Assembly: GCA_021773275.1 (NCBI GenBank)
Contig: JAJFKJ010000013.1
Coordinates: 2,092 to 66,091 of the forward strand
From: Gammaproteobacteria bacterium
Lineage (GTDB): Bacteria; Pseudomonadota; Gammaproteobacteria; JABCZS01
DNA length: 64,000 bases
Reading direction: 5' to 3'
The position numbers and the translations under genes were made by a program. How positions within the stretch are numbered: position 1 is the first letter of the stretch; each line of letters opens with the position of its first letter. The notes under the pieces are model-generated. The model ran no database searches. It saw only the letters and a program-made list of their open reading frames with translations, and was not told the origin of the DNA. Of this stretch, positions 54,510-61,289 are shown piece by piece.

Positions 54510-56165
54510 ATGCTCACACACATCCAAATTAAAAACTTCGCAATCATCGATGAGCTAAATATCGAGTTGCACCCCGGCATGACTGTAATGACCGGCGAAA
54601 CCGGTGCCGGTAAGTCTATTATGATCGATGCACTATCACTTTGCATGGGCGATAGAGCTGATGCAACTTTTGTGCGCGCTGGCGCGCAGCGGGCCGACAT
54701 TTGCGTTTCGATTGACATATCCCGCTTGAGCTTTATTCAGCAATGGTTGGCAGAGCACGAACTAGAAAGCGAGGCTGAATGCGTTGTGCGCCGTACTATC
54801 AGCAAAGATGGCCGCTCACGTGCTTACATTAATGGTCATTCTGTGCCGCTGACAAAACTTAAAACTCTCGCGCAAGATTTTATTGACATTCATAGTCAAC
54901 ACGCGCATCACGCTTTACTAAAACCTGAAACGCACGGCAAGTTATTAGATATTTTTGGCAAACAGCAGCCTCAGCTTGCGATCGTCAAGCAACATTACGA
55001 TCGTATGCGTGAAATCACTGCAGAAATAACAAGTCTAAAATCTAAAGAAGCGGACAAAGCACATGAGATGGAGCTATTGCAGTTCCAAATCGAAGAACTT
55101 GATAAGCTCGATTTAAAACCCGATGAATGGAGCGATCTTACCCAAAAACACGACGCCCTTTCGCACAGTGAACAAATCATCAGCCACGCACAAAGTATTT
55201 TAGACACACTATTCGAGGACGAGTCGCACTCCCTGGTGCAAACCCTGGCACAACTCAAACACAAATTAGACACTATCGCCAAACTCGATGGGAGCTTACG
55301 CGATATTAGCAAACTAATCAGCGACGCACACATCAATTGCGATGAGGCTGCCAGCAGTTTACGGGCGTATATATCTGGCATCGAAAATGACCCGCAAACA
55401 CTGAAAGACATGCATGATCGCATCAGTTTGTTGCATGATCTCTCGCGCAAACACCGCTGCGAACCTGAAGCATTATGCGAAAAACTAGCAAGCTTGCAGG
55501 AAAGATTTGCTGGCCTACAATCGCAAGAAGAAGCAATTATTGCCTTAGAAGCTGAATTGAAGTCAGAGCAACAGGCCTATCAAGCTGTCACTACAAAACT
55601 CAGCAAAGCACGGCAAAATCACGCGACTAATTTAAATAAACAAATCACTGAGATGATGCAAGAACTTGGCATGCCCAGCGGCGAGTTTTTTGTGCAGCTT
55701 AAGCCCCTAACTGAACCCAGCAGCAATGGCCTGGAACAAATAGTGTTCATGGTTAAAACAAACGCCGGGCAACAAGCGCATCCATTGCAAAAAGTCGCCT
55801 CTGGCGGCGAGCTTTCACGTATCTCACTTGCATTACAAGTAACGATTGTACAAGATGATATGCTGCCGGTGATCGTGTTTGATGAAGTCGATGTAGGTAT
55901 TGGTGGTGGCACCGCTGAAATAGTCGGTCATTTATTGCATTGCCTTGGTGAAAAAGCACAAGTATTGTGTGTAACGCATCTACCACAAGTCGCTGCCCAA
56001 GGTGATCAACATTTTTTCATTAGTAAGCAAACTACTGACAACCAAACCCGCACGCAAATGTCTGTGCTCAGCAAAGAACAGCGCATCGAAGAAATCGCCC
56101 GTATGCTAGGCGGCGTCAAGATCACCGAAAAGACCCTGGAGCATGCTCAAGAGATGTTGGGTTAA
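54510..56165 (+). CDS. recN: DNA repair protein RecN
   Basis: 551 aa. Walker A GETGAGKS, coiled coil, C-terminal signature/Walker B (LSGGELSRISLAL...IVFDEVDVGIGG). Confidence 0.9.
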   Translation: MLTHIQIKNFAIIDELNIELHPGMTVMTGETGAGKSIMIDALSLCMGDRADATFVRAGAQRADICVSIDISRLSFIQQWLAEHELESEAECVVRRTISKDGRSRAYINGHSVPLTKLKTLAQDFIDIHSQHAHHALLKPETHGKLLDIFGKQQPQLAIVKQHYDRMREITAEITSLKSKEADKAHEMELLQFQIEELDKLDLKPDEWSDLTQKHDALSHSEQIISHAQSILDTLFEDESHSLVQTLAQLKHKLDTIAKLDGSLRDISKLISDAHINCDEAASSLRAYISGIENDPQTLKDMHDRISLLHDLSRKHRCEPEALCEKLASLQERFAGLQSQEEAIIALEAELKSEQQAYQAVTTKLSKARQNHATNLNKQITEMMQELGMPSGEFFVQLKPLTEPSSNGLEQIVFMVKTNAGQQAHPLQKVASGGELSRISLALQVTIVQDDMLPVIVFDEVDVGIGGGTAEIVGHLLHCLGEKAQVLCVTHLPQVAAQGDQHFFISKQTTDNQTRTQMSVLSKEQRIEEIARMLGGVKITEKTLEHAQEMLG

Positions 56166-56233
56166 AAAACAGCTTGTGCGCCCCACCAGAATATGTTAGA
56201 ATACGAACTTACCCTGTAGTCCTGGTACAAGCT

Positions 56234-59200
56234 ATGCCTAAAGATTTAACACATGCTCGTCAGCTTATCATAGATTTTCTTGATAAAGATCATGATCTTA
56301 TCGGTGAAATGACCGACGAAATCCGTAACCTTGCCGCTACTGAGCTTGAGCTCAGCAAAGGCTACCTGCTCGATCAGCTTAAAGCCATAGACCCAAAAGA
56401 AGATGAGGCGCTACAAAAAGCCATCCGGCGGTTCTTTATATTACGCTGGTCGATAGTCATGCACAGCAACATTGACTACACAAACATGCCACACAGCCCG
56501 ATGAACCAGTTCTGCATGGAATTGGCATCGCTCATCCGCGACAAAGATGAAGATGGTGAAGACGAACTATTAGCCCACCTCCTGATGCCAACCTTAGAAG
56601 ACTATATGTATCATGTAGAGCAACTGCAACAGTTAACAGAAAAGGATGGCAGGCTCACACCTTGGCGCTTCATTGTCAGCGAAGACGGCAAAGGCGTTAT
56701 GCCGATTGAAGAATTTTTTAGGCACCATGCGCAAACAAGAAGCAAACCTGATCAGCATTACTATGCTGTCAGCGACAGATTCCCAGCATTAAGTCCGCAA
56801 GAAAAACAGTGGCTTGGCCAAAGTGTTACACCCTACGCAGAACAATTTTTGGAGCAATTTGATGAGCTGAGCAAAATAAGCTTTGCTAAAAACTCTTTAG
56901 GAGAAGCCGTACTTGATCTCACACAGGCATTGGGCCGAGCAGGACTAGCCATGCGCGGCGAAAATGATGAAGCAGATTTTGCAGTTTATCAGCATATCGA
57001 ACGTTTTATCAATAAGCTAAGTGCCTTTGAGAAAGCTTCGCCAGGCACAAAAGAAAAACTGTTTAAACTAGAACACCCCAATAAAACTGAGACCTTTGGG
57101 AGTTATTACAAAAACTTAACTGAGAATAAAGTGGGCGGCCTTAAAACCTGCGTCGAGCTAAATAAGGCTGGAATAGAATCGGTCATTAGAAATGAGCTTA
57201 ATAAAAAAAGTTCCGGTGAAATTCATTCCAGTATACTCGACACCGTCATTGAAAGCCCCGACAACGAAGAACAAGAAGGCGATGAAAATAACGCTTCAAT
57301 GTTGTTCGCTTACCTAGGGTTAGTCTCAGGCGGCCTCGGGGATCGTGAACAAGCCATCAACGCCTATTTGCATGATAAAAGTGCGAGAAACTTTGAAAAG
57401 GCTCAAAAGACACTGTATAAATTTGAAAACGATATACACCTTAACGAAAGAATAACGGCATGCAAGCAGCATTTAGACAATAACTTAATTATCGACGGCA
57501 ATGCCTCGGATGAACAGCTTGAGTTTTTGTATCGCTTATTGCAGACGAGTAAATCTATACAAAAATTTGCTGAAATAAGTAAATTAGATATTAATACTGC
57601 AAAAGATGTGGCTACGCGTGCGTTCAGAAACAAACCCAAACAAATGGGATTCCTATTAGAAGAACCAGACTTCCCCATTCTGGAAGACACCTACTTTTTT
57701 GCTGTTAAACAACACGCCACCGACCTTTTAGATGCTTTAGCCAAAAGCAGTAAGCCAAAGCCTGATATCAATGCTACAGACAGCGATGGCTCTACTGCTC
57801 TGCAAATAGCAGCAATGAAAGGCTATCGGGGATGTGTTGGGAAGCTTCTGGATGCGCGCGCAAATACCGACAGCGGCACCCCTAGGCCTTTGGAAGCCGC
57901 ACTTAATAAAAACCATGCAGAAATCGCGGTTGACCTCGTGAACCATGGCGCTGCGGTCTGCGCCACAGACATTAACACGGCCTCCCGGGGAAGCATGGCT
58001 GAAGTGTTAAAAACCATTTTTGAAAAACATAAAGGTAAGCTTCAGCTCAATGAAAGTAAGTTTGCAGGTGAAGTTTTTGATATTGTGGCACTGCTTAAAT
58101 CTCTAGCTAGCAATAACAATGTTGAATTGCTTGGTTTTCTTCTGGAAAATGGTCTGCTATTAAACAAAATTGATCCAGACGGCCAGATTTTGAATGCAGC
58201 TCTGGAAGCAGGACATGATGATTTTGCCTTAAAGGTGCTGAAGCATTACACAACTGCAAACAATGAAGCAGCAAAGTTAGCAGCCACTAAAGGCTGCCCC
58301 AATTCATTAGCACGCATTTTAAATTCAAACAGTGCTGCTGCAACAAGAGATTTATTGCAAGGCGCAATAAAGAGTCGGAATGATAAAACTGCTGTCCTCT
58401 TGCTACAGCATGAAGCACAGCATACTTATGACGATTTTATCGATGCCATATCATTATATAGAGATGAAGACGGTTATCGAAAAACGCAAAATCCACTGAC
58501 AGAAACCATGCGATTTTTGTTAAAAAATACAAACTACGTTAAGGTTACCACCTCGACACCCCCCGCCTTGCATCACGCAGTATTGCATTCCACTGTAGAA
58601 GCTGTTGATTTACTGCTTGAAAATGAGGTAGAGGTTAATAGCCAAGGTTATGGTGCCACTGCTCTTGATCTAGCGATATATAAAATTCACTACGCACATC
58701 CATGGCGTATCCAGCAAGACAGATCAGACGCCCGTGCTAAGATAAAAAGCATTGCTCTTGCCGGCGGAAAACCTTCTACAAAAATACCTACATGCTTTGG
58801 TGATTATTATATATCAAAACCGAGCTTGCCCCTTGCTGTTGAGGAACTAGATGCAGATAGCCTTGAGCTAGTTTTAAAAAATAGTAGTGACATCTTGGAT
58901 CATAAATATTGTAGCGTAACAGCCTTGGAAGGCGCGATAAGATCTAATAAAGCAGGGGCATCGCTTGCTTTGCTTAATGCAGAATTTCCTAACGTTGAGA
59001 CAGACTACCCTTGCCCCATTCTTGACTTACAGGACCGATTATTAACGCCCACTATCATTTCTGCACAAAAACGTGCAAAAACAACCAGCTTTCAACTCTT
59101 TAGTCTTTTTATTCAATACGTTATTGATGTACGCGAAAATGAAGATATTTGGCGGTCTATTGCAAAAACATTAATTCGAGATCACGCATGGCATCTTGAT

Positions 59201-60991: not shown

Positions 60992-61053
60992 GTCTTTGTC
61001 GGCGAACGCTGTTTTTTGAATGTGAACATTTGCCAATATTAGCACATACCTTG

Positions 61054-61128
61054 TACAGGGGCGGCATTGCATGCCGCTTGCACGGAGGTAAACCCGTGGC
61101 AATCGCATCGCTACGCAATGTCGGGTCA
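61054..61128. repeat. Degenerate REP/REPIN remnant abutting the recN-3' duplicate
   Basis: gtacaggggcggcattgcatgccgc (REP with a 2-bp insertion), then ...ctacgcaatgtcgggtcacc (compare R2 ctgcgcaatgtcgggtcgcac), truncated exactly where the recN-homologous segment begins. Confidence 0.5.
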
Positions 61129-61289
61129 CCCAAGGTGATCAACATTTTTTCATTAGTAAGCAAACTACTGACAACCAAACCCGCATGCAAATGTCTGTGC
61201 TCAGCAAAGAACAGCGCATCGAAGAAATCGCCGGTATGCTAGGCGGCGTGAAAATCACTGAAAAAACTTTGGAACACGCTCAAGAGATG
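61129..61289 (+). repeat. Diverged direct repeat of the recN 3' end (~161 bp, ~90% identical to 55996-56156), at the right boundary of the ankyrin island
   Basis: cccaaggtgatcaacattttttcattagtaagcaaactactgacaaccaaacccgca[c/t]gcaaatgtctgtgctcagcaaagaacagcgcatcgaagaaatcgcc... The differences are mostly at third codon positions. The copy ends with a different terminal codon run (…EMLQCAIP*). Confidence 0.8.

Follow-up and report, generated by a model that had tools for sequence, protein, structure and literature searches.

The recN locus and its duplicated gene end

The analysis covered one window of 64 kb, the whole stretch of DNA studied, on a contig from the metagenome-assembled genome (MAG) of an uncultured gammaproteobacterium. 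In this window an intact recN gene is separated from rimK by about 5 kb of DNA that hold a very long open reading frame (ORF) for an ankyrin-repeat protein, here called ank, and the 3' end of recN is present twice, once on either side of the additional DNA. The segment appears to have entered together with a recN end of its own, and we consider homology-anchored illegitimate recombination, or a double template switch with the same product, the probable origin, a view held with moderate confidence. Database proteins are designated by P numbers (P0001 etc.), and L001 to L015 are loci from other contigs used for comparison. The features of the locus are:

54510-56165, plus strand: recN, intact, with a native body and a foreign-type 3' tail (100 % to P0001)
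55996-56116, plus strand: repeat copy A, the near-identical block of 121 bp in the live recN (119/121 versus 61129-61249)
56117-56165, plus strand: divergent recN tail, apparently brought by the insert, ending in VKITEKTLEHAQEMLG and the stop (8 synonymous differences in 28 bp; 32/40 versus copy B)
56166-56233, plus strand: spacer with the ank upstream region (read from sequence)
56234-60739, plus strand: ank, 1501 amino acids (Pfam Ank_2/4/3/5; collinear with the Ank protein of L008, 45 % identity)
60771-61030, minus strand: GNAT N-acetyltransferase pseudogene (tblastn versus a Legionella adelaidensis plasmid GNAT)
61058-61083, no strand: degenerate hairpin (GCGGCAT-TGC-ATGCCGC) resembling a repetitive extragenic palindromic (REP) sequence (sequence pattern)
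61090-61128, no strand: 5' half of a REP unit, cut within the hairpin (83 % to the complete unit 23042-23089)
61129-61310, plus strand: repeat copy B, the displaced native recN 3' end, a pseudogene fragment (in frame to LQCAIP and the stop)
61311-61366, plus strand: native recN-rimK spacer (aligns to the recN-rimK spacer of L008)
61367-62272, plus strand: rimK, the native downstream neighbour of recN (Pfam RimK, Rimk_N)

The two recN ends form a gap-free direct repeat of 161 nt (55996-56156, copy A, and 61129-61289, copy B) with a distance of 5133 bp from start to start, and a repeat scan revealed this pair as the only long repeat in the window. An earlier examination of the letters alone, in the following named the sequence-only reading, had recognised the repeat and given its identity as about 90 %. 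The repeat is real, its measured identity is 94 % (10 mismatches). Copy A is the 3' end of the intact recN of 551 amino acids (Pfam domains SMC_N and AAA_23). Copy B retains the recN frame and has its own stop codon at 61308-61310, 56 nt before rimK. The terminal codons differ, as had been reported: copy A ends in VKITEKTLEHAQEMLG and the stop (EMLG-stop), copy B in VKITEKTLEHAQEMLQCAIP and the stop (EMLQCAIP-stop). The DNA between the copies consists of a 68-nt spacer, the long ank ORF (56234-60739), the minus-strand remnant of a GNAT gene and REP-like sequence.

The mismatches are clustered (permutation p 4e-4; 2.5e-5 for third positions only). In the first 121 bp (55996-56116) two differences were found, at 56053 and 56100, both nonsynonymous (Thr to Met and Arg to Gly). 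At both sites copy A shows the state of L008 and L002, the change is derived in copy B and fits a relaxed selection on a dead fragment. The next 28 bp (56117-56144) contain eight differences, all synonymous, which affect eight of the ten codons of 56115-56144; up to position 56156, eight of the 14 tail codons differ between the copies, always synonymously. Twelve identical bases follow after 56144, and beyond 56156 the copies are unalignable. Synonymous changes represent 20.5 % of the possible single changes in the repeat stretch, hence the chance of at least eight synonymous changes in ten is 9e-5; the statement that the substitutions are mostly synonymous was correct. Since eight random changes would not all be silent, tail A must have had a long evolution in another lineage, where it terminated a functional recN. 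Error-prone repair as source of the eight clustered differences was ruled out, all eight being synonymous and thus a sign of long selection in a functional recN. Over 56117-56156 copy A agrees with copy B in 32 of 40 positions and with the recN tails of other genera in 29 to 31. The LG-stop end of copy A is the natural RecN terminus in more distant relatives (P0008, P0014 and P0019), and the LQCAIP-stop end of copy B is of the type present in the two nearest relatives (LQGS-stop and LQTNH-stop).

From these alignments the live recN is best described as a hybrid: a native body followed by a terminal stretch of ~49 bp from a divergent recN allele, joined to the ank upstream region. The switch from native to divergent sequence apparently falls in 56101-56116, in the conserved RMLGGV codons. 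The proposal that the incoming DNA had supplied its own recN end gained support from the divergent tail with its LG-stop terminus; the differences are not evenly spread, with two in 121 bp and then eight in 28 bp. Two substitutions in 121 bp, a divergence of 1.7 %, date the event as recent. Through the Thr to Met substitution copy B has gained an ATG, with which an ORF of 41 codons begins (61185-61310); nothing indicates a relevance of this ORF.

Empty site and right junction

Seven relatives were compared at recN (L008, L009, L002, L010, L011, L012 and L015). A close strain is not present in the database; besides P0001, the window's own protein, the closest RecN sequences have identities of 81 %, 80 % and 68 %. 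In L008, a JGI contig of 72.6 kb, and in L009 (RecN 81 %), recN is followed by rimK after a spacer of 51 bp. The gene order in L008 is carB-carA-dnaJ-dnaK-grpE-hrcA-nadK-recN-rimK-rimB-like-MscS-like-mgtE. The L008 spacer aligns to the DNA 3' of copy B, with TATACTTA and the Shine-Dalgarno region in common, and gave no alignment to the DNA 3' of copy A. Copy B is considered the native end because the native spacer and rimK directly follow it, and L008 and L009 present the empty site. In L002, L010, L011, L012 and L015, fur/bamE lies downstream of recN, in some of them behind one to three unrelated genes; the recN-rimK adjacency is thus derived and common to the window lineage and L008. The sequence-only reading had suspected that some 5 kb had been inserted downstream of recN, and had named an observation that would speak for an ancient duplication instead, a second recN-like segment in relatives without ank. 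None of the related genomes examined has a second recN 3' end, and the homologous spacer together with the single recN end in L008 and L009 argues for the insertion between recN and rimK, with copy B as the displaced native recN end.

The right border of the insert lies in a REP sequence. The REP family of the window has the pattern GTAGGGGTCGCA-N5-TGCGACCCG and occupies six sites, all intergenic (509-538, 4581-4676, 21530-21587, 23042-23108, 48861-48912 and 61058-61137). Complete hairpins are present at 517, 4589, 21538, 23075 and 48878, five by exact pattern in addition to variants, for an expectation of none by chance. Two sites have a second unit, and the doublets include a GGGGCGGCA/GGGGTGGCA variant; a longer unit is also common to the REP sites. 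A pattern scan of 13 related loci (L001-L013) did not reveal this family. Next to copy B, positions 61090-61128 correspond to the 5' part of the unit 23042-23089 (83 % identity) and end inside the hairpin; the truncated REP ending at 61128 had already been described and is real. The breakpoint is located at 61128/61129, with a microhomology that extends to 61137, and on the recN side it corresponds to codon 496 (55996). The sequences at the join are ...CGGGTCGCACAGGGTGCGACCCC for the REP, ...CGGGTCACCCAAGGTGATCAAC for the junction and ...GCTGCCCAAGGTGATCAAC for recN; the hybrid reads GGGTCACCCAAGGTG, compared with GGGTCGCACAGGGTG in the REP and GCTGCCCAAGGTG in recN. Within the microhomology, REP (CACAGGGTG) and recN (CCCAAGGTG) agree in seven of nine bases, and no similarity exists beyond it. 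Because a palindrome is cut in half exactly where the recN sequence begins, the right junction is most plausibly an illegitimate breakpoint in a REP of the host family, not the natural edge of an att site.

REPs have been seen as rearrangement breakpoints, and the likeness is evident in one unit cut in the hairpin exactly at the junction. The difference is that one partner of the join is a REP and the other a coding sequence. The REP'/recN hybrid at 61124-61149 forms a 7-bp hairpin followed by a T-run and resembles a terminator; nothing indicates a relevance of this structure. A REP-associated tyrosine transposase (RAYT) linked to the REP family was not found in the 64-kb window; its sole Y1 transposase gene (30726-31298, with a low GC of 0.349 and an IS200-like Y1_Tnp domain, E 1.5e-7) is flanked by 41-nt inverted repeats (30652-30692 and 31289-31329) that are different from the REP family. 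This ORF may be a RAYT or an IS200-like element.

The ankyrin gene and the other cargo

The likeliest start of ank is the ATG at 56234, 68 nt past the recN stop and not immediately after it, as had been assumed. With this start, the 1501 amino acids are identical to P0121, and the N-terminus (MPKDLTHARQL, MAVDLNKARKL and MATDLTHARQL in the three homologues) agrees with those of the two other proteins. The protein consists of an uncharacterised N-terminal domain (amino acids 1-480), ankyrin repeats (Pfam Ank_2/4/3/5) and a conserved C-terminal tail; the AlphaFold2 model has a predicted local distance difference test score (pLDDT) of 85.7. The N-terminal domain of 480 amino acids had no Pfam match and no sequence match in the PDB, and a plasmid tblastn search with it gave no match. 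An exhaustive HMMER search yielded a family of 92 cluster representatives with this N-terminal domain. Ankyrin repeats were present in nine of ten family members tested, and all members looked up originated from metagenomes or MAGs. End-to-end collinear homologues are the Ank protein of L008 and P0122, each 45 % identical. The three Ank proteins are roughly equidistant, as are the three RecN proteins at ~80 %; these star-like trios indicate that the Ank family belongs to the clade, is not an exotic import and evolves fast.

In L008, ank is located after mgtE, 4.5 kb downstream of recN. Copies of a palindromic element of ~90 bp, similar to miniature inverted-repeat transposable elements, bracket this ank and the next ORF (L008 16077-16165, 20712-20805 and 21481-21575); the element was not found in the window. 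The upstream region of the L008 ank contains no recN-like sequence. Upstream of ank in the window, ATGTTAGAAT at 56193-56202 reads as an extended -10-like motif, and a similar motif, AATGTTAGCAT...AACTTAC, precedes the L008 gene; the common pattern of both is ATGTTAG(A/C)AT...AACTTAC. A promoter scan did not list the motif at 56193-56202.

A deviation in GC content or codon usage had been suggested as a check for foreign origin. The composition of ank (GC 0.421, GC3 0.370) is host-like, within one standard deviation of 46 other genes (0.448±0.028 and 0.422±0.056), thus a distant source gained no support from composition.

Ankyrin effectors of the Dot/Icm system in Legionella and Coxiella are comparable in that a large bacterial protein carries ankyrin repeats of the eukaryotic type. 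The best score against the NCBIfam T4SS_Ank models was 34.6 bits for a cut-off of 600, obtained in the repeat region only, and does not place the protein in these families. The window encodes on the minus strand (609-2870) a protein of 753 amino acids with a eukaryote-type Ser/Thr kinase domain (Pfam Pkinase, E 6e-15). The kinase and the ankyrin protein suggest a host-associated lifestyle.

The ORF of ank takes up 4506 of the 4972 insert-specific bases (90 %), the remainder being GNAT debris and REPs. The GNAT remnant matches residues 2-69 of a GNAT of 364 amino acids on a Legionella adelaidensis plasmid (tblastn, 46 % identity, E 3e-16) and also residues 148-168; residues 70-147 with the catalytic core are deleted and the frame is shifted. 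Pfam Acetyltransf_8 scored with E 0.002 and 18 bits, below the cut-off of 27. A complete GNAT fold with the acetyl-CoA-binding core is not encoded, and the remnant is regarded as a pseudogene from this comparison. The earlier annotation as a truncated AAC(6')-like gene was right in the GNAT fragment, and the AAC(6') label found no support (NCBIfam ~16 bits, cut-offs at least 260). Scans with Pfam, for tRNA genes and with Rfam detected no recombinase domain, no tRNA and no Rfam family at the insert. The lack of an integrase gene, noted earlier, was confirmed; ank occupies 90 % of the insert and leaves no space for a remnant of one.

Other parts of the window and of the related loci have additional genes. 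After recN and between grpE and nadK, L011 (4500-6011), L012 (6593-10448) and L015 (4095-8961) carry unrelated, mostly domain-less genes, and in this clade genes seem to have been gained repeatedly on both sides of the nadK-recN pair. In the window, three ORFs without Pfam match (52608-53498, minus strand; 45285-46580 and 46604-47719, plus strand) split the carA-dnaJ and hrcA-nadK junctions that are contiguous in L008. Judged by this gene order, they are probably further lineage-specific insertions in the conserved backbone; flanking repeats were not found in the window repeat scan. A direct repeat of 57 nt (79 % identical, 21633-21689 and 23118-23174) brackets a tRNA-Leu gene (21770-21852), an ORF of unknown function (21963-23033) and a REP, and may be a second insertion scar.

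Origin of the insertion

An explanation has to account for a hybrid recN, for a resident gene end that starts at 55996 with 121 near-identical bp, for a REP of the host family broken at a microhomology and for the lack of mobility genes. In the ancestral arrangement of the lineage, recN would have been followed by rimK. The incoming segment would have been without mobility genes and would have comprised a divergent recN tail of ~49 bp, ank with its upstream region, the decayed GNAT gene and the REP cluster. The left join would lie inside recN, at 56101-56116, with native sequence upstream and the incoming allele downstream; recN stayed intact because the native body continues into the end of the incoming allele. 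The right join would be illegitimate, from the middle of the REP hairpin to codon 496 of recN (55996) at the imperfect 9-bp microhomology. Because the likeness between incoming and resident DNA extends 121 bp beyond this join, the resident 3' end was kept as a dead repeat, composed of the 121 bp and the native tail, followed by the spacer and rimK. Copy B would since have acquired its two amino acid-changing substitutions.

The most economical history has two steps. In the first, a strain of the lineage would have obtained the tail-ank-GNAT segment from a divergent relative, and host REPs would then have settled alongside. In the second, recent step this haplotype would have recombined with a conspecific recN-rimK haplotype, presumably over a long identical anchor. 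A conspecific donor would explain all of the following: a left crossover anywhere upstream in identical sequence, the identity over 121 bp and the REP of host type. A replicative double template switch would yield the identical product.

Homology-facilitated illegitimate recombination (HFIR) is known from naturally transformable bacteria (Acinetobacter, Streptococcus pneumoniae) and has been defined experimentally by transformation. The recN locus resembles it in a cargo without mobility genes and in its two junctions: one falls within sequence common to resident and incoming DNA (56101-56116), the other at a microhomology of a few bases (seven of nine). It differs in the position of the illegitimate join, upstream of the end of homology, by which resident DNA was duplicated and not deleted; moreover, the case is here known from sequence alone. 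A literature search gave nothing directly usable on HFIR with duplication or on REP join-points.

Several observations weigh against this origin. The postulated donor arrangement, recN directly followed by ank, was found in none of the seven relatives; the context of P0122 was outside this comparison. Metagenome scans for a donor with recN-ank adjacency gave no match. Searches of a protein index with the Ank N-terminal domain and with a 17-sequence alignment had no match either, but even the query itself was missed, and the index evidently does not reach such proteins. The sequence is a MAG contig. Finally, the near-identical block followed by a diverged surrogate tail can also fit an integrase att scar after recombination between the repeats.

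The latter possibility corresponds to the insertion of e14 in Escherichia coli K-12, where the live icd gene runs into the element and the icdC pseudogene lies at its far end (PMC13626634). The sequence-only reading had seen in the recN repeat an att-like scar of such a decayed integrating element. In an adapted form, attP would have carried a surrogate recN end, internal deletions would since have removed the integrase and all else but ank and the GNAT remnant, and the first 121 bp of the repeats would have been homogenised by recombination or gene conversion. The overall scar is strikingly similar. In both cases an intact target gene enters the insert, kept intact by the end that the element supplies, and the displaced native 3' end forms a pseudogene and direct repeat at the far side; the repeats are near equal in size and identity (165 bp and 93 % for icd and icdC, 161 bp and 94 % for recN), with mostly synonymous differences, and an unoccupied site exists in relatives (L008, L009). 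The details are different. e14 carries intE and xisE, whereas an integrase, an excisionase or a remnant of a recombinase is missing in the recN insert, of which only ~390 bp are not ank. In our alignment of icd and icdC, 12 differences are distributed along the whole length to a common stop; in recN the differences follow 121 near-identical bp, are confined to 28 bp, and the stop codons differ; the repeat does not diverge from a crossover core to the stop, and its boundaries are not the limits of attP/attB homology. An att boundary would also not be expected to coincide with a REP broken within its hairpin at a microhomology, as the right repeat does at its outer edge. A second instance at recN was present in none of the seven relatives, a thin sampling, and the composition is not foreign. 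The att-like scar was consequently not upheld, and a decayed island of the e14 type is unlikely. The alternative in the same reading, a homologous replacement from a divergent donor, came closer to the junction evidence.

A more speculative proposal, to which we give little credence, regards ank with the attached recN tail as a non-autonomous effector cassette. The recN end would serve as homology docking site, and the cassette would move repeatedly between related host-associated gammaproteobacteria or be mobilised in trans by a recombinase or a REP-associated transposase. If so, its movement would have left footprints in the fact that ank occupies different places in the window and in L008, in each case between repeat elements of the respective genome.

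A purely intragenomic origin seems improbable. It would require a tandem duplication with the join between the REP' and recN at 55996, comprising recN-3'...rimK...mgtE-ank-GNAT-REP, and then a deletion of rimK...mgtE from the first copy. Join-points of tandem duplications at REPs are known from the older Salmonella and E. coli literature. In favour of this origin, 61128/61129 is shaped like the join-point of a tandem duplication, ank is located in L008 only 4.5 kb downstream of recN after mgtE, and the REP family is native to the genome. This sequence of events accounts neither for the eight synonymous differences nor for the different stop in the tail of copy A, as a deletion leaves the native tail or none; furthermore, the L008 ank has no recN-like sequence in front of it. 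A minimum of two additional events would be required, and a second ank would be expected after mgtE, beyond the window.

Slightly less probable again is a chimera of assembly or binning, in which two co-existing haplotypes, one with recN(tail A) and ank, the other with recN(tail B) and rimK, would have been merged into one contig and no single genome has the repeat. The window originates from a MAG contig (66,130 bp), and the independent Logan contig L001 (SRR15505519; 100 % over 2798 nt) starts at 61203, exactly with the first 31-mer unique to copy B. This start shows a branch of the assembly graph at the repeat, which is equally expected from a true duplication, fitting one without proving it. 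In addition, a microhomology of seven of nine bases is far below the k of any assembler and cannot seed a join, so 61128/61129 must exist in the reads. Also rejected was the integration, in one step and by a single crossover, of a circle that came from a divergent donor, because both repeat halves would be diverged, versus the observed identity of 119/121.

Scars of this kind, with an inserted segment between duplicated gene ends and a target gene completed by an imported tail, are known, and the ingredients are equally familiar (homeologous exchange, joins at microhomologies and REPs that act as fragile sites). The recN-ank locus adds a further example from an uncultured lineage, neat and well resolved but not unusual. 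It provides a clean natural case in which both insertion junctions are readable base by base, and the preserved displaced gene end is a timing device (two substitutions in 121 bp). An att-like scar with the look of the e14 icd/icdC pair can arise without an integrase, which calls for caution in the automated calling of island and prophage boundaries. The cargo represents a clade-specific family of large proteins, known from metagenomes only, that combines an uncharacterised, confidently modelled N-terminal domain with ankyrin repeats and resides at different repeat-bracketed sites in sister genomes.

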